From: an uncultured Candidatus Actinomarina sp.
GTDB lineage: Bacteria; Actinomycetota; Acidimicrobiia; Actinomarinales; Actinomarinaceae
Direction of reading: 5' to 3'
Length of the DNA stretch: 64,000 nucleotides
NCBI GenBank assembly: GCA_902626065.1
Contig: CACODT010000003.1
Span: 18,895 to 82,894, forward strand
Both the position numbers and the translations under genes were made by a program. Shown in pieces: positions 40,584 through 49,404 of this stretch (its first letter is position 1; each line of letters begins with the position of its first letter). The notes under the pieces were generated by a model. It had not been told where the DNA came from. It searched no databases and worked only from the letters and a program-made list of their open reading frames with translations.

Positions 40584-41492
40584 ATGAAGGGTTATTCTAA
40601 CGAGCTCTACATACTTGCATTTGATCACAGAGGAACTCTAACAAAAGGTCTTTTAGGTGTAGAAGGAAGACCGCCTAATGAGGAAGAGGCATCAAGAGTA
40701 TCTTCAATGAAAGATATTATTTTTGATGGATTTATAGAAGCCAAAGAAACAGGTATTGGGACGGGTGAACCTGCAATACTTGTTGACGAGACTTTCGGAT
40801 TACAAGTACAACAAAAAGCAAAAGAATTGGGTGTTAAGTTTGCAGCCCCTGTTGAGAAATCAGGTCAAAAAGTATTTGATTTTGAGTATGGTGATGAATT
40901 TGGAGAAAAGATAAAAGAAGTTAATGCTGATTTTGTAAAAATTTTAGTTAGATGGAACCCAAATGATGACGAAGAAACTAGAGAAGTCCAAGGTAAAAGA
41001 ATAAAAACATTATCTGATTGGCTTGAAGAAAATGAAAGAAAATTTTTGCTGGAATTTCTAGTCCCTGCGACTGAAGAGCAATTGTCGAGTGTAGACGGAG
41101 ATCAATCAAGATACGATTCGGAAATAAGGCCGAAACTAGCAGTTCAGGTTGTTGAAGAGATGAGAGAAAAAGGAGCAGACCCTGACATTTGGAAGATAGA
41201 AGGATTAGACAGAAAAGAAGATTGTGAAAAAATCTCGTCTGCAATCAAAGATGGTGGCAGAGATGATGTAATAGCCGTTGTTCTTGGTAGAGGTGCAAAT
41301 GACGAAAAAGTTAATGAGTGGCTGAGGGCTGGATCATCTGTTGATGGATATAGTGGCTTTGCGATAGGTAGGTCTATATTTTGGAACTCACTTAAAGGAT
41401 GGCATGAAAATGAAAAGTCAAGAGAAGAAGCCGTATCAGAAATAGCCAATTCATATTTAAATTTTATCTCTGTATATCAAAACGGGAGCTAA
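40584..41492 (+). CDS. Class I aldolase-fold protein (DUF2090 / LacD-IolJ-like)
   Basis: N-terminal 'LYILAFDHRGTL' resembles the 'AFDHRG'/'ALDQRG' start of DUF2090 and tagatose-bisphosphate aldolase TIM barrels. 'DIWKIEGL' resembles the Schiff-base Lys strand 'DVLKVEVP'. Assignment is from memory only. Confidence 0.5.
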   Translation: MKGYSNELYILAFDHRGTLTKGLLGVEGRPPNEEEASRVSSMKDIIFDGFIEAKETGIGTGEPAILVDETFGLQVQQKAKELGVKFAAPVEKSGQKVFDFEYGDEFGEKIKEVNADFVKILVRWNPNDDEETREVQGKRIKTLSDWLEENERKFLLEFLVPATEEQLSSVDGDQSRYDSEIRPKLAVQVVEEMREKGADPDIWKIEGLDRKEDCEKISSAIKDGGRDDVIAVVLGRGANDEKVNEWLRAGSSVDGYSGFAIGRSIFWNSLKGWHENEKSREEAVSEIANSYLNFISVYQNGS

Positions 41493-41495
41493 GAA

Positions 41496-42698
41496 ATGCC
41501 TGTTGGCAAAGCGGTAATTGGTCAATCAGGTGGTCCGACAGCTGTAATTAATAAGTCATTAGTTGGTTTCATAAAAGAGGCTATTAATCAGGAATACGAT
41601 GAAATACTTGGAGCACGACACGGACTGGAGGGGATATTAAAGGAGGATTTTGTTGATTTATCTAAACTTTCAGAGTCTCAACTTTATGGAATATCGAAAA
41701 CACCTGCAGCTGCTTTAGGCTCAGTAAGAAAAAAACCAACAGATAATGATATTGAGCAATTGATTTCAATTTTTGAGAAACAAAACATAAGATATTTTTT
41801 TTACATCGGTGGAAATGATTCTGCAGAAACTGCAAATCTTGTATCTGAGGGTGCTAAAAAAATAGGATATGAAATTAAAGCTTTTCATGTCCCTAAAACT
41901 ATAGATAATGACCTTTTGGAAACGGATCATTGTCCAGGTTATGGTTCAGCAGCCCGATTTGTTGCTCATGCATTTCAAGGGGATGATGCTGACAACAGGA
42001 GCCTTAGAGGAATAAAAATCAATGTTTTAATGGGTAGGCATGCAGGATGGCTTACCGCTGCCAGCACTTTAGGAAAATCAACTGAAGAAGATGGTCCACA
42101 TTTAGTTTATGTTCCTGAGAAAATATTTAATTTAGATGAATTTTTAAAGGATGTAAAAGAAGTTTACGATTCATTAGGAAGATGTGTAGTTGCAGTATCC
42201 GAAGGCATTCACAATAAAGATGGTGAGTACTTTCTCCAAACATATGCAAGCGAAACAGGTTCTGGACTTGCAGGAAAAAAAGATAGCCACGGAAACATCC
42301 AGCTCTCAGGTTCGGGTGCCTTAGGAGATACACTTACAAACATTGTCTCAGAACATATTGAAGGAGCCAGGGTAAGAGCAGATACGTTTGGCTATCTTCA
42401 GAGATCTTTTCTCGCAGATATTTCAGAAGTAGACGCTGAAGAGGCCGAGAGGGTTGGACAGCATGCAGTTGTAGCTTCAAAAGATAAAGAAAGCGGATCA
42501 ATTATTCTAAGAAGACAGTTTTCAGAAACTTATTATTGCGATGTAGATGTCGTTGAATTACATAAGGTCGCAAAACACACAAAAAATATGCCGGAGGAAT
42601 ACCTAGAAAAAAATAAACCATATGTGACAAATGATTTTTTTGAATACGCAATGCCTTTAACTGGAGGTATAGAGCCCAAAACACAGATATTTGTATAA
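41496..42698 (+). CDS. pfp: 6-phosphofructokinase, probably PPi-dependent type
   Basis: 'IGQSGGPTAVINKSLVG', 'FFYIGGNDSAETA', 'VPKTIDNDL', 'MGRHAGWL'. The GG-N-D-S sequence (acidic residue where ATP-PFKs have GGDGS) and the roughly 400-aa length suggest PPi-PFK. Confidence 0.8.
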   Translation: MPVGKAVIGQSGGPTAVINKSLVGFIKEAINQEYDEILGARHGLEGILKEDFVDLSKLSESQLYGISKTPAAALGSVRKKPTDNDIEQLISIFEKQNIRYFFYIGGNDSAETANLVSEGAKKIGYEIKAFHVPKTIDNDLLETDHCPGYGSAARFVAHAFQGDDADNRSLRGIKINVLMGRHAGWLTAASTLGKSTEEDGPHLVYVPEKIFNLDEFLKDVKEVYDSLGRCVVAVSEGIHNKDGEYFLQTYASETGSGLAGKKDSHGNIQLSGSGALGDTLTNIVSEHIEGARVRADTFGYLQRSFLADISEVDAEEAERVGQHAVVASKDKESGSIILRRQFSETYYCDVDVVELHKVAKHTKNMPEEYLEKNKPYVTNDFFEYAMPLTGGIEPKTQIFV

Positions 42699-43130
42699 AT
42701 GTCAAAAATAGAATTATCTAGAGAAGATTTTAAAGCATTCTGGGAGGCAACTGTTAGATATTACGAGCTTGATCCTCAAGGTGTAATGCATAATGCAAAC
42801 TATGTTGCTTTCTTTGATCAAGCTATCACTGCTTACTTCAAACATGTAAATTACGATTATTTCAAAGACATTGAAGAAACAAAAAAAGACTTTCACACAG
42901 TACAAGTTTTAGTTCAATATCATAAACCACTTCATTTTGAAGACACAATAGAGATAGGAACAAAAATAAAAAATGTTGGTAACACAAGTATGACTTGGAT
43001 AATGGGAATGTTTAACAAAAAATCAGGTGATTTAGTAAGTTCCTGTGAGGCTGTTCATGTTTATACAGATCAAATAACGATGAAACCAACTTTAATAACT
43101 GATGAACTCAAAAAAAAATTAAATTTTTGA
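42699..43130 (+). CDS. Acyl-CoA thioesterase, hotdog fold (YbgC/4HBT family)
   Basis: 'VRYYELDPQGVMHNANYVAFFDQA' is the typical 4HBT N-terminal catalytic motif. 143 aa. Confidence 0.8.
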   Translation: MSKIELSREDFKAFWEATVRYYELDPQGVMHNANYVAFFDQAITAYFKHVNYDYFKDIEETKKDFHTVQVLVQYHKPLHFEDTIEIGTKIKNVGNTSMTWIMGMFNKKSGDLVSSCEAVHVYTDQITMKPTLITDELKKKLNF

Positions 43131-43160: not shown

Positions 43161-43664
43161 ATGAAAAAAATAAGCATACTTTTTTTTATTCTATTTTTTA
43201 ATATTTGTGTTTCATCGGAAAATGGAGTTATTTCAATTTCTGAAAACACAGTAACAACCCAAATTGTAAATGAAGAAGATTATCCATTTGTTTTAGCAAA
43301 TTGTTTAAATGATGAAAAGGGCTATCAAATTTTAACTCCTTTTGATTTAGAGGATTTAAAAACAACAATAAACCAATTAAGTCAAAGTAAGGAAGATGAA
43401 TTAGAACTCAAAGAAGCTATTGATTTTTGTATTGATAAATACAACCTATGGACCGATCGAAGTACTTTAAACCCAGAAGAACTGGCAAAATTGTATGATG
43501 AAAATATTTCTTTGGCAAAATGTCTGAGAGAAAAAGGTCTTGATGTATCCGATCCAACTCAAGATCAACCTAAAATTGATTTAAGCAACTTAGTTCAATC
43601 AAAAGATGAAACAATTGCTTTATTAGACGAATGTGAGGTTGATGAAAAAACAACTAAAAAATAA
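43161..43664 (+). CDS. Secreted 4-Cys repeat protein, paralog 1
   Basis: Signal peptide 'MKKISILFFILFFNICVSS'. Two modules: 'LANCLNDEKGYQILTP...DFC' and 'LAKCLREKGLDVSDP...DEC'. Confidence 0.75.
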   Translation: MKKISILFFILFFNICVSSENGVISISENTVTTQIVNEEDYPFVLANCLNDEKGYQILTPFDLEDLKTTINQLSQSKEDELELKEAIDFCIDKYNLWTDRSTLNPEELAKLYDENISLAKCLREKGLDVSDPTQDQPKIDLSNLVQSKDETIALLDECEVDEKTTKK

Positions 43665-44241
43665 GTCTTTAATATTATTAATTTTTTTACTAATTCAAGC
43701 TTGTTCAGCTTCAAATGAGCAAAAAGGTGTCGTTTCTTCCGAAGACTTAACAATACAAACAACTGTTACAACAGTAATAACAGTTCAGGACAATCCTGAA
43801 ATTGAAGATTTAACAGAAGAGGAAGCACAGCTAATACTTGCAGGATGTTTAAGGGAAAAAGGTTATGATGTCGCAGATCCAAAAAATGATGAGGGCTTAA
43901 GAACAGTTTTAACACCAATATTTATTAGTTTCAATGAAAAACAGAGGGAGGAGTTGTTTCAAAATATACAATTGTGTGCAGAGGAGAACTCTATTCCACT
44001 TGAAAGCAACAATGACTTTGAAAACCCTGACGATGTTGCTGATAGGCTTGACACTGAACTTGAGTTTGCGCAGTGTCTAAGAGGTAAAGGAATAGATGTT
44101 TCTGATCCATCATCTGAAGAACCTCTAAGACCAATACTTATTGAACTTGTACAGTCGGAAAAATATACAGCGAATAAAATACGAGAAGCTGCTGCAGAGT
44201 GTTTTGACGATCTAGGTCTTGATCCTCCGCCTGGCGGGTAG
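43642..44241 (+). CDS. Secreted 4-Cys repeat lipoprotein, paralog 2
   Basis: Preferred ATG 43642 gives 'MKKQLKNKSLILLIFLLIQACSAS' (lipobox). Modules: 'LAGCLREKGYDVADP...QLC' and 'FAQCLRGKGIDVSDP...AEC'. Overlaps paralog 1 by 23 nt. Confidence 0.75.
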   Translation: MKKQLKNKSLILLIFLLIQACSASNEQKGVVSSEDLTIQTTVTTVITVQDNPEIEDLTEEEAQLILAGCLREKGYDVADPKNDEGLRTVLTPIFISFNEKQREELFQNIQLCAEENSIPLESNNDFENPDDVADRLDTELEFAQCLRGKGIDVSDPSSEEPLRPILIELVQSEKYTANKIREAAAECFDDLGLDPPPGG

Positions 44242-44265
44242 CAAAAAATACTTTATAATTTTGAT

Positions 44266-44862
44266 GTGAGAAAAAAAATAGCAGTATTCATATTATTTTT
44301 TTCTTTTTGCTCACTATTTCAAAATGAAGAGCAAGCTGTGGTATCTGTTGTCGATACAGATAAAGGAAAAGAGGCTATTGCGGCAGGTATAGAAATTAGT
44401 GAAGAGAAAGAGGAAATAGCAGATGAAGATGCACCACTTGTTTTGGTTCAATGCGTAAACGAAGCAGGATATAAATTTAAAGAACCCAAAAACTTTATAG
44501 ATTTATACACAACAATTTCAACTTACTTTGAGACGCTTACTGAACAGGAAGCAGAAGAACTCTGGAAATCAATTGAAGATTGTGCACTTAAATATAACTT
44601 ATGGGGAGTTGCTGATGAAGCACAATTTGAAGACCCAATTCAAACTTCAAAAGAATTAGACAGAGCTTTATTTATAGCAAATTGTTTTAGAGAAGAAGGA
44701 TATGAAAAAGTACCAGATCCTAATTATTTCAATAGAGATGTAAATCTTGATGCATATATTGATGAAAATTGGGAACTTAGAGAAGACGACCCCTTAGTTC
44801 AAACTTGGCAAGGTTGTGAAGAAAAGTTACCCGATGAATTAAAGGAAGAGTGGGATGATTAA
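44266..44862 (+). CDS. Secreted 4-Cys repeat protein, paralog 3
   Basis: GTG start. Signal 'MRKKIAVFILFFSFCSLF'. Modules: 'LVQCVNEAGYKFKEP...EDC' and 'IANCFREEGYEKVPDP...QGC'. Confidence 0.75.
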   Translation: MRKKIAVFILFFSFCSLFQNEEQAVVSVVDTDKGKEAIAAGIEISEEKEEIADEDAPLVLVQCVNEAGYKFKEPKNFIDLYTTISTYFETLTEQEAEELWKSIEDCALKYNLWGVADEAQFEDPIQTSKELDRALFIANCFREEGYEKVPDPNYFNRDVNLDAYIDENWELREDDPLVQTWQGCEEKLPDELKEEWDD

Positions 44863-44932
44863 AACTTACAATAAAAATTTTCTCTTAATATCGCTAAATA
44901 CAATAAAATACTCTAAGTAGAAAAATACACAT

Positions 44933-46519
44933 ATGAAATTAAATATATTTAAAAATAGAAATTTTTATATCCTGATAGTTTTAATAGTTATTGGTTCTGC
45001 TGGTTATTATGTTGGAACCCAAAATACTGAATCTTCATCAGTTAACAAAACACTACAGCTCACAACTGTTTCAATCCAGCAAGGTGACCTCGAAAAGAAA
45101 GAAGAGTACAACGGGACACTAAGACAAACTGATAGCAAAATACTTAACAGTCCAATGGCTGGAGTTGTTACTTTTATTCCAGATGAAGGAACTATTATAA
45201 AATTTGGAGAAATTCTTTTTGCTGTAGATAATAAACCTGTAATCCTGGTTGAAGGTTCAGTTCCTTTCTACAGAACATTAGATCTAAACTCTGATCCAGG
45301 ACCAGATGTATTACAACTTGAAAAAGCACTAGTTTATTTAGGATATGCAGCTGATGGATTTGTTCCAGATGACACTTTCGATGAAACTACTTCACAGATG
45401 CTTAACAAGCTTTATTTTGACTACAAAATAGAAACAAAATCTGAAGTTACTCCATCTGAGCAGGTTGCTATCAATTTGAAAGAAACAGAAGTAAAGAATA
45501 TTGAAGAAACCATTGACTCAGGTGGGACAACAATTACTGAAGTAAATGATAAAAAAAAGAAACTAGACGATGCAAAAGAAGATGCAACAGAAGAGAGCGC
45601 AGCTTGGAAAGCAGCAGATACAGCAATTAAAGACGCTGAAGAGACTTTGACACTTTATAGAGATGAAACAAACCCAAAAACAAAAGAGAAAAAAGCTGAT
45701 GGAACTTTAGATTCTGCAATTGAAGACTTAGAACAAACAATAGAAGAACAAAAAAGAATTAAAGCACTAGAAAAAGGAAAAGAGTCAGGCATAGACGCAA
45801 CAGAGGCACTTGCAATTGAGACAGCTCAAAAAGCTTATGAGGATGTTTTAAAAGACTACAATGAAGGAGTTGATCAGGAAGCTGAATTAGCAAAAGCAAA
45901 AGAAGAACTAGAAGAACTTAGATTAGCTTCAAAGTCAGAAACATTTAGTCCAACAAACGCCTATGCATCGGAAACAGCAATAATTGTTGGTTCTTATATA
46001 AACAAGGTTGGATCAGCAGTAGTTCTAAACTCTCAGCTTTATAATATTTCTTCAGTTGGAATTGAGGTTGTTTTCCAAGTTGATGCATCAGATCAAGAGA
46101 CAGTTTCAATTGGAGATAGTGTTGAGATAGAACTTCCTACAGATGAAAGAGTACCAACGGTAATTACCTTTATAGACCAAGTCGTTACTCAAACTCAAAC
46201 TGGAGATTTTATTGAGGTGATTCTTGAAGTACTAAATCCAGAAGAAATTGAAGCTTATGATCAAGCACCAGTAAAAGTATTTGTTACAACTGAAATATCC
46301 GAGAATGTGCTTTATGTACCTGTAAATGCACTAATTGCTTTAGCTGAGGGAGGTTATGCTTTAGAAATTTATGAAGGTGAAGCTGAAGGAGGAGTTTTTG
46401 AGGGTGAATCAGGAGTTGACACTATCTATGTAGCTGTTGAAATTGGAGTCTTTACTGATGGGTTTGTAGAAATCAAGGGAAATATTACTAAAGGTCAACT
46501 TGTAGTCGTACCACGATGA
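44933..46519 (+). CDS. MacA/HlyD-like membrane-fusion adaptor with an embedded peptidoglycan-binding domain and long coiled coil
   Basis: N-terminal TM 'FYILIVLIVIGSAGYYVG'. Lipoyl-like 'LNSPMAGVVTFIPDEGTIIKFGEILFAV'. PG_binding_1-like 'GPDVLQLEKALVYLGYAADGFVPDDTFDETTSQMLNKLY'. About 170 aa of K/E/A-rich coiled coil. Beta-barrel 'VSIGDSVEIELP'. Confidence 0.8.
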   Translation: MKLNIFKNRNFYILIVLIVIGSAGYYVGTQNTESSSVNKTLQLTTVSIQQGDLEKKEEYNGTLRQTDSKILNSPMAGVVTFIPDEGTIIKFGEILFAVDNKPVILVEGSVPFYRTLDLNSDPGPDVLQLEKALVYLGYAADGFVPDDTFDETTSQMLNKLYFDYKIETKSEVTPSEQVAINLKETEVKNIEETIDSGGTTITEVNDKKKKLDDAKEDATEESAAWKAADTAIKDAEETLTLYRDETNPKTKEKKADGTLDSAIEDLEQTIEEQKRIKALEKGKESGIDATEALAIETAQKAYEDVLKDYNEGVDQEAELAKAKEELEELRLASKSETFSPTNAYASETAIIVGSYINKVGSAVVLNSQLYNISSVGIEVVFQVDASDQETVSIGDSVEIELPTDERVPTVITFIDQVVTQTQTGDFIEVILEVLNPEEIEAYDQAPVKVFVTTEISENVLYVPVNALIALAEGGYALEIYEGEAEGGVFEGESGVDTIYVAVEIGVFTDGFVEIKGNITKGQLVVVPR

Positions 46520-47220
46520 AAACCGATACAAAAACTGTAATTTCAATCAATGATATTTCAAAAGTTTATGAAGGACCACCCCCTGTAAAAGCACTAGATG
46601 GAGTTTCTTTAAATGTTAAAGAAGGAGATTTAGTTGCAATTGTTGGACAATCTGGAAGTGGTAAATCAACTTTACTAAATATGATTGGATTATTGGATAG
46701 TATTACAGACGGTTCAATTGAAATAGAAGGCAAAGATATATCTGACTTAACAGATAATGAACTATCAAAATTTAGAGGTGAAAAAATAGGATTCATTTTT
46801 CAAAGCTTTTTTCTTCTGCCTGGATTGACAGCACAAGAGAATGTTGCAGAGGGGTTACTATATCAAGGGATTTCAAGGTCAGAAAGGTTAGAAAAAGCAG
46901 GAGATGTTTTAGAACAAGTAGGACTAGGTGATAGGTTAAGCCACCTTCCCAAAGAACTTTCCGGTGGTCAGCAACAAAGAGTTGCAATTGCTAGAGCGCT
47001 AGTACAAGACCCAGCATTTGTTTTAGCAGATGAGCCAACTGGAAATTTGGATAAAGAATCAGGAATAAATATTTTAAATATCTTAAAAGAACTTAATGAC
47101 CAAGGAAAAACTGTAATTATGATTACTCACAATCAAGAACACGCAAATATGTTTAAAAAAGTAATTGAATTGGTTGATGGAAAAATTGTGAAAAATGAAA
47201 AGAAAAAAACTAAGAACTAG
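46516..47220 (+). CDS. ABC transporter ATP-binding protein (MacB-type)
   Basis: ATG overlaps the adaptor stop (ATGA). 'GQSGSGKSTLLN', 'LSGGQQQRVAIARAL', 'VLADEPTGNLD', 'ITHN'. Confidence 0.9.
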   Translation: MKTDTKTVISINDISKVYEGPPPVKALDGVSLNVKEGDLVAIVGQSGSGKSTLLNMIGLLDSITDGSIEIEGKDISDLTDNELSKFRGEKIGFIFQSFFLLPGLTAQENVAEGLLYQGISRSERLEKAGDVLEQVGLGDRLSHLPKELSGGQQQRVAIARALVQDPAFVLADEPTGNLDKESGINILNILKELNDQGKTVIMITHNQEHANMFKKVIELVDGKIVKNEKKKTKN

Positions 47221-48379
47221 AGATTTATTTTTTGTTGCACTTTATGGCGTACGCGCAAGAAAAGGAAGAGCTACTCTTACTTCTATTGGAATTGGAATAG
47301 GAATAGCTGCAATAGTTGCAGTTTCCGGAATATCAGCATCTGGAAGGGCTGACTTACTATCAACTCTTGAGTCACTTGGAACAAATCTGGTAAAAGCTTC
47401 TCCTCAAGCAGGATTTTTTGGAACTCAAGAAGATTTACCAAAAGGAGTTCTTGGAATGGTTGAAAGAATTGGACCAGTTGAAGAAGTAACATCTACAACT
47501 CAGACTGATTTATTAGTTCGTAGAAGTAACTTCATATCAGAATTTGAAGGTGGGGGAATTTCAACAATAATTACGAGCGCAGAACTTTTAGATGTAATTG
47601 GAGGTAATCTTGTTGAAGGCAGATTCATTACACCTGGTTTGTCTAACATACCTGTAACCGTGTTAGGAAGCGTTACTGCTGAGAGACTTGGAATTACAAA
47701 TCTCTCGACACCTACAAAAATTCTCATTGATAATGAATGGTTTGGGGTAATAGGGGTATTAGAAGAGCTTAAAATACATCCAGACCTAGATAGATCAGTA
47801 TTTATAGGTTATGGAGTTGCAAAAACTCTTTTTGATATTGATGAGGAACCAACAACAATTTACTTAAGAGCAAATCCAACTTTTATTGAGGATGTTGTTG
47901 AGGTACTAGCTCCATCAATGAATCCTGAAAATCCTGATCAAGTAGAAGTTACTAGACCCTCAGATGCACTTGAGGCGCAACAAGCAGCTGAAGAAGCATT
48001 TACTAATTTATTACTGGGGCTTGGTTCCGTAGCTCTTCTTGTTGGAGGTGTTGCAATAGCAAACGTAATGGTTATGTCTGTTCTTGAAAGAAGAATGGAA
48101 ATTGGTGTGAGAAGATCAATTGGAGCAACCCGTAGAGAAATAAGGTATCAATTTTTATTAGAAAGTATTGTTTTATCTGGAATAGGAGGACTTGTTGGTG
48201 TTGGCCTAGGAACCTTCATTACCTTGGCTTACACTAACTACACAGATATTGTATTCTCAATACCTATATGGCAGATTTTAGGAGCAGTATTTTTAGCATT
48301 ATTAATTGGAGCAATTTCAGGAGTATATCCAGCTATAAAAGCATCAAAAATTCAACCAGCAGAAGCAGTAAGAAAGTAA
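47195..48379 (+). CDS. ABC transporter permease, MacB/FtsX type (4 TM plus extracytoplasmic domain)
   Basis: 394 aa. 'GRATLTSIGIGIGIAAIV' (TM1), about 220-aa external domain, FtsX block 'ERRMEIGVRRSIGATRREI', C-terminal 'YPAIKASKIQPAEAVRK'. Confidence 0.9.
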   Translation: MKRKKLRTRDLFFVALYGVRARKGRATLTSIGIGIGIAAIVAVSGISASGRADLLSTLESLGTNLVKASPQAGFFGTQEDLPKGVLGMVERIGPVEEVTSTTQTDLLVRRSNFISEFEGGGISTIITSAELLDVIGGNLVEGRFITPGLSNIPVTVLGSVTAERLGITNLSTPTKILIDNEWFGVIGVLEELKIHPDLDRSVFIGYGVAKTLFDIDEEPTTIYLRANPTFIEDVVEVLAPSMNPENPDQVEVTRPSDALEAQQAAEEAFTNLLLGLGSVALLVGGVAIANVMVMSVLERRMEIGVRRSIGATRREIRYQFLLESIVLSGIGGLVGVGLGTFITLAYTNYTDIVFSIPIWQILGAVFLALLIGAISGVYPAIKASKIQPAEAVRK

Positions 48380-48894
48380 TCTTTCTTGCTTTGTTGGTTT
48401 CTTCCTGCACTATTGGCGAAGAAGAAACTAAGGGTGTAGTCTCACTCGAAGAAAGTGTATCCTCTACAACAATTATTGAGCAAGTAACTTTTGAAGAAGG
48501 TGTTTTGAATTTTGCACAATGTATGAGAGAAGAAGGCATTGACTTTCCAGACCCTTCATTTGATATAGACGGCAATCCAGAATTTGATAATTTAGACATT
48601 GAAAACGAAGAAGAATTTGAAGAAGCATTTACAAGCTGTGAAGATATTTTGAGAAACGCACTTCCTGATCAATTTGATCTTGATCCAGAAGTTGAGGCAG
48701 CATTGGTTGATGCATCATTAGAATTTTCAAAATGTATGAGAGATGAAGGTATCAGCAACTTTCCTGACCCAACACCAGGTGAATTTGGATTTTTTGCTTT
48801 TAGAGATGCTGATATCGAATGGACTTCAGACGAGGTACAGGAAGCATTTGAAATTTGTCAACCAGAAAATCCTTTAGAGAATTTAAACGATTAA
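48268..48894 (+). CDS. Secreted 4-Cys repeat lipoprotein, paralog 4 (start codon unresolved)
   Basis: The mature part starts at lipobox 'KKVIFLALLVSSCTIG' (Cys codon 48406-48408). Modules: 'FAQCMREEGIDFPDP...TSC' and 'FSKCMRDEGISNFPDP...EIC'. The only canonical start, ATG 48268, lies 112 nt inside the permease gene. Confidence 0.65.
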   Translation: MADFRSSIFSIINWSNFRSISSYKSIKNSTSRSSKKVIFLALLVSSCTIGEEETKGVVSLEESVSSTTIIEQVTFEEGVLNFAQCMREEGIDFPDPSFDIDGNPEFDNLDIENEEEFEEAFTSCEDILRNALPDQFDLDPEVEAALVDASLEFSKCMRDEGISNFPDPTPGEFGFFAFRDADIEWTSDEVQEAFEICQPENPLENLND

Positions 48895-48936: not shown

Positions 48937-49404
48937 TTAGATACCTGAATCAAAATACATAGGCGGGCTTACACTTATAGTTTGCCAACATAGTCCTTCG
49001 TTCATTTCACATTTATCTAGAGTAAATATCCAATTCACAATAAAGTATTCGTTTTTATTATTTAAAATTTTTATTTCATATTGAATTGTTTGATCATCTT
49101 CTTGTAAAACTTCAAATGAATAATCAGTTAAATTTATTATTGCGTTGTATGGTTCAGATGTAAGCATTACTCCAAATCTCTCAATAGGTCCAGTTACAGC
49201 CTTATTGTCTTCATGTGCATGACTCCATATCGTTTTTATAGCCTTCTCAGGTTCTGCAGAGAAGTCCTTGTAGCTTTCCATTATTTCAATGAGTATCTCT
49301 TCTGAGCCTGTCTGTTTGAAGGAAATCTTATCGTTATTGTCAATAAAATTACAATTGATAATAATTAATAGAAATAAGAAAGTCTTTTGAATTTTTTTAG
49401 CCAC
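48937..49404 (-). CDS. Secreted (lipo)protein, hypothetical, possibly NTF2-like fold
   Basis: GTG start. Signal 'MAKKIQKTFLFLLIIINC'. No catalytic motif recognised. Its start overlaps the stop of the upstream mini-ORF. Confidence 0.6.
   Translation of the reverse strand: MAKKIQKTFLFLLIIINCNFIDNNDKISFKQTGSEEILIEIMESYKDFSAEPEKAIKTIWSHAHEDNKAVTGPIERFGVMLTSEPYNAIINLTDYSFEVLQEDDQTIQYEIKILNNKNEYFIVNWIFTLDKCEMNEGLCWQTISVSPPMYFDSGI

Follow-up and report, generated by a model that had tools for sequence, protein, structure and literature searches.

Putative four-cysteine lipoproteins encoded beside a MacAB-type pump in Candidatus Actinomarina and other Actinomycetota

The 64-kb stretch of DNA analyzed here (the window, always taken at its full length) has a GC content of ~32%, and proteins closely homologous to those it encodes carry the names Candidatus Actinomarina or Acidimicrobiia. 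An earlier note, made from the sequence by itself, had taken the source to be a streamlined, monoderm actinobacterium, and these two observations indicate that the guess was right. Between positions 43161 and 48894, the window carries seven genes on the same strand that encode the adaptor, ATPase and permease of a MacAB-type ABC pump, together with four small cysteine-containing putative lipoproteins. The relationship between these lipoproteins and the pump is the subject of this report.

The locus in the window

All seven open reading frames (ORFs) described in the earlier note were found in the ORF listing at the positions given in Table 1, with three paralogous lipoprotein genes 5' of the adaptor/ATPase/permease core and the fourth 3' of it. 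The overlaps that had been described were also located. The stop of paralog 1 (43664) lies beyond either start of paralog 2, GTG 43633 (32-nt overlap) or, more plausibly, ATG 43642 (23 nt); the adaptor and ATPase genes share an ATGA at 46516-46519, the ATPase and permease genes overlap by 26 nt (47195-47220), and the ORF of paralog 4, read from ATG 48268, overlaps the end of the permease gene by 112 nt.

The four small proteins are true paralogs, as had been proposed. They are 27 to 33% identical in pairwise comparison and share four invariant cysteines in addition to the signal-peptide cysteine, and their alignment displays a C-x-R-x-x-G...D-P motif that occurs twice in each protein. When a profile of the four was run against the window, only those four ORFs matched, with E values from 1e-56 (paralog 1) to 8e-78 (paralog 3), the next best match having an E value of 0.4. 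Comparison of the N-terminal with the C-terminal module by hhalign gave a probability of 99.8% and an E value of 5.5e-28, which confirms the two-copy architecture as a significant internal duplication of a ~60-residue three-helix module. The earlier count of exactly four conserved cysteines per mature protein holds for the invariant set (residues 69, 112, 145 and 187 of paralog 2), but the number becomes five when the lipobox cysteine is included. Likewise, a signal peptide ending in cysteine is present in all four, although the lipobox is canonical, by the pattern [LVI][ASTVI][GAS]C, in paralogs 2 (IQAC) and 4 (VSSC) and deviates at position -1 in paralogs 1 (FNIC) and 3 (FSFC). Orthologs of paralog 1 have L-S-L-C where the window copy reads F-N-I-C.

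Compared with their orthologs on the related Actinomarina contig L001, the four paralogs gave ratios of nonsynonymous to synonymous substitution rates (dN/dS) of 0.08 to 0.24 (paralog 1, 0.24; paralog 3, 0.08; mature part of paralog 4, 0.09), which are rough values because dS is saturated; all four genes are under purifying selection. The paralogs nevertheless diverge faster than the pump proteins, with 59 to 80% identity to L001 versus 81 to 92%. Paralog 3 is the most abundant ortholog group among close database matches (P0003-P0120, with P0093 named Candidatus Actinomarina sp.). Of the four copies, paralog 4 is nearest the family consensus (CMREEGIDFPDP / CMRDEGISNFPDP), scoring 117 bits with the high-GC family profile compared to 67, 36 and 32 bits for paralogs 2, 1 and 3, respectively.

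The MacB-type core named in the earlier note was borne out by domain and structure searches. The ATPase matched Pfam ABC_tran at 3.7e-36 (125 bits), and its best NCBIfam match was the N-terminal half of MacB (7.7e-72), followed by DarD and LolD, similarities that assign it to the MacB/LolD/FtsE clade. The permease matched MacB_PCD at 1e-16 (62.3 bits against a cut-off of 27; aa 27-229) and FtsX at 3.4e-22 (79.2 bits against 25.5; aa 277-388). Its nearest solved relatives are Spr0695 of Streptococcus pneumoniae (5xu1_M, 1.5e-23) and three MacB proteins (5lil_A, 1.4e-22, with 5gko and 5nik also matched); YtrF, LolF and LolC match more weakly (LolC, 6e-6). It is 92% identical to its L001 ortholog, with a dN/dS of 0.03. 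Membership in two other systems was rejected: for FtsEX, the permease reached 36.3 bits with FtsX_actino against an NCBIfam cut-off of 250, and for LolCDE, it reached 36.7 bits with the lolCE equivalog against 362, with the PDB match to LolC at just 6e-6 and no further gene conserved in the module.

In the adaptor, an N-terminal transmembrane (TM) helix (aa 9-28) and a beta segment precede a PG_binding_1-like domain (aa ~117-165), which is followed by a helical insertion (aa ~165-350) and then by a predicted C-terminal beta-barrel and membrane-proximal region. Its description as MacA/HlyD-like agrees with its alignment to ~350-aa orthologs that pass PG_binding_1 and in part HlyD_3, and with matches of the adaptor family profile in the PDB to MexJ (1.1e-7), MexC-like proteins (3e-4) and several peptidoglycan-binding domains. 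HlyD_3 scored above its cut-off of 22.2 bits in two of ten orthologs (26.1 and 29.6 bits) and below it in three more; the window adaptor itself matched the NCBIfam CzcB adaptor at 5.6e-6 (aa 295-470), where its 25.7 bits are far under the cut-off. The embedded PG_binding_1-like domain that had been reported is sub-threshold in the window protein (PF01471, E value of 0.029, aa 123-156, 15 bits against 23), and the case for it is made by the aligned orthologs, 10/10 of which pass at the same position with 29.6 to 47.6 bits.

The window adaptor aligns by its N- and C-terminal parts to the ~350-aa orthologs of high-GC Actinomycetota, which lack a K/E-rich insertion of ~185 residues that follows its PG_binding_1-like domain (window 45425-45982). 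By this alignment, the long coiled coil reported in the earlier note is an Actinomarina-specific insertion. At the position of the canonical alpha-hairpin, a PG_binding_1 domain without long helices is found in the high-GC orthologs, while the window adaptor has PG_binding_1-like sequence and then ~160 residues modeled as helical, with pLDDT of 63 to 87 from a shallow, Actinomarina-only alignment. This AlphaFold model has a mean pLDDT of 47; only helices 174-333 and the TM helix are modeled with confidence, and confidence is low over the beta-barrel and membrane-proximal domains. Among Actinomarina relatives (adaptors of 527, 547, 553 and 574 aa), the insertion varies in length via duplicated segments, e.g., TTLAEVNSKKKTL... 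and ALAIENAQKAYDDALKSYNEG, so that the length of the presumed wall-spanning part differs between strains.

For paralog 4, ATG 48268 sits 37 codons upstream of the signal peptide (KKVIFLALLVSSC). This codon falls within the permease gene, relative to which its frame is -1, and no ATG, GTG or TTG stands between it and the signal peptide. The same start-codon gap is seen in three related contigs (L001 12000-12150, L002 and L004); a more distant relative, P0124, starts canonically with MKKIIF, and in P0121 the long alternative-frame ORF is open even farther upstream. The distant ATG may serve as the start, or translation may be coupled to permease termination or begin at a codon outside the canonical set, of which ATC 48343 is an example. 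A programmed -1 frameshift from the permease into paralog 4 was rejected: the reading frames are compatible, but there is no slippery heptamer at the proper distance from the weak hairpin at 48367-48390.

Table 1. Genes of the locus, with coordinates in the window
Gene	Position	Strand	Features
Paralog 1	43161..43664	+	167-aa Cys4 lipoprotein-family protein; two C-x-[RN]-...-G...P modules; signal peptide MKKISILFFILFFNIC
Paralog 2	43642..44241	+	199 aa from ATG 43642; GTG 43633 is an alternative start
Paralog 3	44266..44862	+	198 aa; GTG start
Adaptor (MFP/HlyD-like)	44933..46519	+	528 aa
MacB-type ABC ATPase	46516..47220	+	234 aa
MacB-type (type VII ABC) permease	47195..48379	+	394 aa; MacB_PCD between TM1 and TM2, FtsX C-terminal domain
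Paralog 4	48268..48894	+	ORF from ATG 48268; lipobox Cys codon 48406-48408

The tight same-strand packing described in the earlier note is borne out, but the boundaries of the operon, and with them the number of seven genes, are uncertain. Three same-strand housekeeping genes (window 40584-43130) lead up to paralog 1 without any gap of more than 30 nt, and the transcription unit is therefore possibly larger than seven genes; the orthologs of these three on the Actinomarina contigs L001-L004 belong to Pfam DUF2090, PFK (phosphofructokinase-like) and 4HBT (thioesterase). Directly past paralog 4 lies a convergent 155-aa ORF (48937-49404, minus strand) whose signal peptide (MAKKIQKTFLFLLIIINC) resembles that of a lipoprotein. 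This ORF does not belong to the Cys4 family (E value of 7.7 with the four-paralog profile); contigs L001-L004 keep it as a gene of 152 aa, for which no Pfam hit is recorded.

The lipoprotein family and its genomic neighborhood

A full HMMER scan of 1.84 billion representative sequences retrieved 3,008 family clusters (50% identity) at an E value of ≤1e-3, and 302 at ≤1e-10, mainly in Actinomycetota. The members listed are 73 to 301 aa long, most complete ones having ~165 to 300 aa. Of 148 family representatives, 104 have a lipobox, with the consensus L-A-A-C-G in most genome loci, and the mature parts of the 148 are strongly acidic, with a median pI of ~4. The motif CMR[DE]xG[VI]D[MF]PDP is present twice in most members. 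A second motif, VAS[LI], whose counterpart in the window paralogs is GV[VI]S, lies 8 to 15 residues past the lipobox cysteine and is conserved inside an otherwise variable linker. Metal binding via the Met and His of the CMREHG motif was considered and rejected, as these residues are not conserved in the window paralogs.

The earlier note could name no family for these proteins, and the searches gave the same answer. No family match was found in Pfam and NCBIfam scans of the four paralogs, in a Pfam scan of 103 members or in an NCBIfam scan of 16, a profile search of PDB sequences gave nothing below an E value of 0.6, and the source annotations read 'hypothetical protein', including that of RefSeq WP_116996059.1 from Desertimonas flava. 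The library candidates from Pfam, NCBIfam and PADLOC, i.e., PBP_GOBP, CX9C, cytochrome c551 and Eex_IncN, were all discarded as sub-threshold noise: PBP_GOBP scored 15 bits against a cut-off of 22, and CX9C matched just 5/103 members with a best E value of 0.0028, in proteins whose cysteine spacing is not the Cx9C of CHCH/CX9C domains. Literature searches returned no description of the lipoprotein family or of its pump module.

The AlphaFold model of paralog 2 (mf026028cc3df), computed from a 103-sequence alignment, has a mean pLDDT of 82.6 with the core above 90. It is all-helical, with six helices in two three-helix modules of ~7 kDa each, joined by a linker of lower model confidence and preceded by a disordered tether (residues 1-58); a Foldseek search of the PDB with this model found no fold match (best E value of 3.1). 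The cysteines are spaced ~42, 31 and 42 residues apart, and each module thus has one cysteine on helix 1 and one on helix 3, a geometry for which one disulfide per module would be the parsimonious reading. The number of modules is not fixed at two, since the 237-aa orthologs of paralog 4 P0001 and P0002 carry three, the middle one being an exact-looking duplication. The anchor varies as well: a sub-group without a lipobox (P0144, P0157, P0235, P0261; L085 791-1681) has a TM helix in its place, preceded by a predicted cytoplasmic N-terminus of ~80 residues that is rich in proline and aspartate and begins with a conserved M-x-E-T-P-x-E-P-R. The sole context available for this sub-group, on contig L085, has a divergent response regulator gene upstream and a TM-protein ORF overlapping by 4 nt downstream, and the contig is too short for pump genes.

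The surroundings of the family were sampled by a tblastn search of 185,579 species genomes with the CMR[DE]HG[VI]D motif alone, from which the best 80 of at least 549 confirmed matches were taken as loci. These come from Acidimicrobiia, Thermoleophilia and Solirubrobacterales, Pseudonocardiales, Streptosporangiales and Euzebyaceae, with a few from metagenome-assembled genomes (MAGs) labelled Limnocylindrales or Burkholderiales; cultured carriers of the module include Amycolatopsis, Lentzea and Kibdelosporangium (Pseudonocardiales) and Patulibacter. Enrichment of homologs beside MacAB/FtsX-type exporters was the check that the earlier note had named for its own proposal, and in 78 of the 80 motif-retrieved loci the family gene lies directly upstream of, and on the same strand as, homologs of the adaptor, ATPase and permease genes, the other two loci being contig ends. 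This outcome of the check speaks for a functional link. In the sampled loci, the lipoprotein gene is genetically inseparable from the pump. Taking the start codon nearest the lipoprotein stop (TGA) as the candidate adaptor start, the two overlap by 4 nt in 52 of 75 loci and lie within -8 to +15 nt of each other in 67 of 75.

The only further conserved neighbors encode an OmpR-type response regulator and a HAMP histidine kinase. This pair is found upstream, divergent or co-directional, in nearly every non-Actinomarina locus with enough flanking sequence, and the lipoprotein gene stands between the pair and the pump. The kinases have an extracytoplasmic segment of their own before HAMP, which falls at residues ~126 to 303 in the stop-to-stop ORFs scanned. 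From these conserved neighbors, the canonical module consists of the two-component system, lipoprotein, peptidoglycan-binding adaptor, MacB ATPase and MacB permease. Outside Actinomarina the usual number of lipoprotein copies is one; L080 has two, and L074 has a weak second copy past the permease gene. Two apparent features of these loci were set aside. A conserved 'small protein' neighbor, obtained by raw six-frame ORF clustering, was shown by Pfam scans to be an antisense, off-frame image of the response regulator gene. Lipoprotein-adaptor fusion ORFs in L034 and L059, considered as Rosetta-stone evidence, are topologically inconsistent and probably indel artefacts; L040, from the same MAG as L034, encodes the proteins of the L034 fusion as separate ORFs.

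Actinomarina departs from the other carriers in three respects: it has four lipoprotein copies rather than one, no nearby two-component system, and the ~185-residue insertion in the adaptor. The layout of three paralogs upstream and one downstream is kept in all four related contigs (L001-L004), and no response regulator or kinase was found in the 64-kb window or in these contigs. Actinomarina thus appears to have lost the linked two-component system yet multiplied the lipoprotein. Some of the related contigs hold additional genes: an Acyl_transf_3 membrane acyltransferase gene, absent from the window, lies 1 to 2 nt upstream of paralog 1 (L001 5793-6893; L002 5287-6390), and in L002-L004 a gene for a 146-aa hydrophobic protein stands between paralogs 1 and 2 (L002 6940-7380).

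Candidate roles of the lipoproteins

We propose, with a probability of about one half, that the lipoprotein family is a dedicated fourth component of the pump, namely, a tethered extracytoplasmic partner of a peptidoglycan-anchored MacAB-type transporter. Characterized type VII ABC transporters each have a dedicated extracytoplasmic partner, such as EnvC, LolA, MacA-TolC or TesA (PMC12646458), which makes a new class of partner plausible. The seven genes would encode one envelope machine, with the permease and ATPase acting together as a mechanotransmission transporter of the MacB (type VII ABC) type. The adaptor, with its N-terminal helix in the membrane and a putative peptidoglycan-binding domain where canonical adaptors have the alpha-hairpin, is most likely a wall-anchored conduit across the periplasm-like zone of the monoderm cell, as its membrane anchor and peptidoglycan-binding domain suggest; the ~185-residue helical insertion would lengthen it in Actinomarina. 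Each lipoprotein is predicted to have a lipid anchor on the outer face of the membrane, an acidic disordered leash of 30 to 50 residues bearing V-[AV]-S-[LI], and two three-helix modules, each probably stapled by one disulfide. Tethered in this way, it could dock on the periplasmic domain of MacB or on the base of the adaptor and capture or present substrate for the pump, and the four divergent copies would widen the range handled. The anatomy, the family and its near-obligate synteny with the pump are shown above; docking and substrate handling, like lipidation and the disulfides, are inferred.

Three observations favor a tethered partner over a released cargo or a kinase co-factor: the interchangeable anchor, the VAS[LI]/GV[VI]S motif, and the loss of the two-component system together with multiplication of the lipoprotein. 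Because lipobox and TM-helix anchors are interchangeable across the family, the function is likely to be performed while the protein is anchored, and the conserved VAS[LI], judged from its sequence conservation, may be a docking motif.

Several points weigh against this proposal. Four divergent copies are more than a structural subunit would normally require, and the faster evolution of the paralogs fits cargo or ligand-binding proteins equally well. The locus sample consists of the top matches to one sub-family motif, and more divergent members may have other contexts. As to gene coupling, 4-nt overlaps are common in high-GC operons generally, the candidate adaptor starts were chosen for their nearness to the lipoprotein stop, and in the window the gap between paralog 3 and the adaptor gene is 70 nt. 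Finally, on the 34% GC contig L086 (ENA ERZ27289063, 1-3434), the paralog-2-like P0132 has phage-like neighbors, with a DNA methyltransferase gene and a weak T4 gp2-like gene beside it, and what follows it is a small TM protein, not an adaptor; this may be a phage or island context. A phage link was pursued on this account and rejected, as no family matches were found in IMG/VR (two queries) or among 50,697 INPHARED phage records.

The lipoproteins could instead be the cargo, a tentative alternative that we rate clearly below the tethered partner: they would be extracted from the outer leaflet in a LolCDE-like manner and pushed via the peptidoglycan-anchored adaptor channel to the wall or surface, the four paralogs being four surface-displayed products in parallel to Aat secretion of lipidated CexE/dispersin. 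The conserved motif lies just past the putatively lipidated cysteine, where Lol-type recognition is expected from LolCDE-lipoprotein structures. The bead-like ~7-kDa modules on a linker of lower confidence, variable in number as in P0001 and P0002, are in keeping with a transported product, and copy expansion with evolution faster than that of the pump is typical of cargo genes; an Acyl_transf_3 gene is directly upstream in related Actinomarina contigs. Movement of Sec-exported proteins is a known activity of MacB-family machines; lipoproteins are extracted by LolCDE (PMC5985334), and the Aat system puts an acylated small protein on the surface (PMC7943197). However, variants anchored by a TM helix with a conserved cytoplasmic N-terminus could not be extracted in lipoprotein fashion, and the one such variant with context adjoins a response regulator gene and a downstream TM-protein ORF that overlaps it by 4 nt. 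Moreover, the permease is far nearer MacB/Spr0695 (1e-23) than LolC (6e-6), the conserved genes of the module include neither a LolA-like nor an AatD (Lnt-like) one, and the monoderm lineages have no outer membrane as a destination. Were cargo the answer, monoderm Actinobacteria would possess an ATP-driven Lol/Aat-like lipoprotein route, from the membrane through an adaptor channel to the surface and switched by a two-component system in most lineages, a consequence that we hold to be slightly less probable again.

The lipoprotein might also be an accessory of the adjacent two-component system that tunes the histidine kinase under envelope stress, with the pump as the regulated output. Actinobacterial kinases are known to have lipoprotein partners, with LpqB acting on MtrB and CseA on CseC, and the OmpR-type regulator and HAMP kinase genes lie upstream in nearly all non-Actinomarina loci with enough flank. 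Yet the tight gene coupling is with the adaptor and not the kinase, the kinases possess their own extracytoplasmic segment, and Actinomarina has four copies by the pump with no regulator or kinase in the window or the four related contigs. That Actinomarina keeps and multiplies the lipoprotein beside the pump without either signaling gene argues for a role with the pump rather than with a regulator, and we consider the signaling role improbable. The idea that the adjacency is incidental, the paralogs being unrelated secreted proteins of a fast-evolving marine gene family, finds a foothold in the L086 homolog on its short contig without pump genes, but it can be given almost no weight against the same gene order in 78 of 80 independent loci from several actinobacterial classes and an operon kept in four Actinomarina contigs with its genes under purifying selection.

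Relation to characterized systems

The class of pump is already known from the Gram-positive MacAB-like systems YknXYZ and Spr0693-5. Spr0693-0694-0695 of S. pneumoniae and YknWXYZ of Bacillus resemble the window locus in that the ATPase is a separate protein, the MacB-type permease has four TM helices and a periplasmic core domain, and the adaptor is anchored in the membrane of a monoderm cell; Spr0695 is the best PDB match of the window permease. Peptidoglycan binding has been reported for YknX, and what such adaptors do in cells without an outer membrane has been described as open (PMC5985334). Unlike these systems, the adaptor family here has a discrete PG_binding_1 domain, a dedicated Cys4 lipoprotein gene precedes the adaptor gene, and outside Actinomarina the module has its own two-component system. 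No such lipoprotein is described for Spr0693-5, and YknW is an unrelated membrane protein.

Escherichia coli MacAB-TolC shares the type VII ABC fold family (MacB, 1e-22) and, probably, an adaptor of the MFP/HlyD class. The enterotoxin STII, one of its known substrates, is exported by Sec as a small peptide and has two disulfides. In contrast to MacAB-TolC, the module described here has no outer membrane or TolC, separate ATPase and permease proteins, a peptidoglycan-binding adaptor and the extra lipoprotein. LolCDE-LolA and Aat (AatPABCD-CexE/Aap) are MacB-type transporters that act on lipidated Sec-exported proteins (PMC5985334, PMC7943197). Compared to these, similarity to LolC is weak (6e-6), the conserved genes include no counterpart of LolA, LolB or AatD, part of the family is anchored by a TM helix, and the family has a classical cysteine lipobox rather than the acylated N-terminal glycine of Aat. 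Membership in the Aat system was rejected, as no acyltransferase is conserved in the 80 loci and the Acyl_transf_3 protein of Actinomarina belongs to a different family from AatD.

YbbAP-TesA and FtsEX-EnvC/RipC work on the same principle of a MacB-fold transporter that drives or feeds a dedicated outside partner (PMC12646458). Here, however, the partner is a helical, putatively disulfide-containing lipoprotein without an enzyme signature, and the permease scores far under FtsX cut-offs. Bce permeases are described as much larger, with ~10 TM helices, and as having no adaptor, whereas the module described here combines a 394-aa MacB_PCD permease with an adaptor and a lipoprotein. What BceAB-BceRS does have in common with it is the genetic coupling of a two-component system to an ABC transporter with an FtsX domain (PMC5985334). 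Altogether, the lipoprotein family, its near-obligate coupling to a PG_binding_1 adaptor and MacB, the associated two-component system, and the fourfold expansion and adaptor extension in Actinomarina appear undescribed in the libraries and literature searched.

With these findings, the open question about adaptor-containing MacAB-type pumps in cells without an outer membrane (PMC5985334) becomes testable. An unannotated family of ~3,000 clusters, with no detectable relative of known structure, is a candidate fourth subunit or cargo of such a pump, and the presence of the module in cultured genera makes pull-downs, deletions and structural work feasible. The streamlined marine Candidatus Actinomarina spends ~5.7 kb on the module and has quadrupled its lipoprotein, which suggests an important cell-surface function in this marine lineage.

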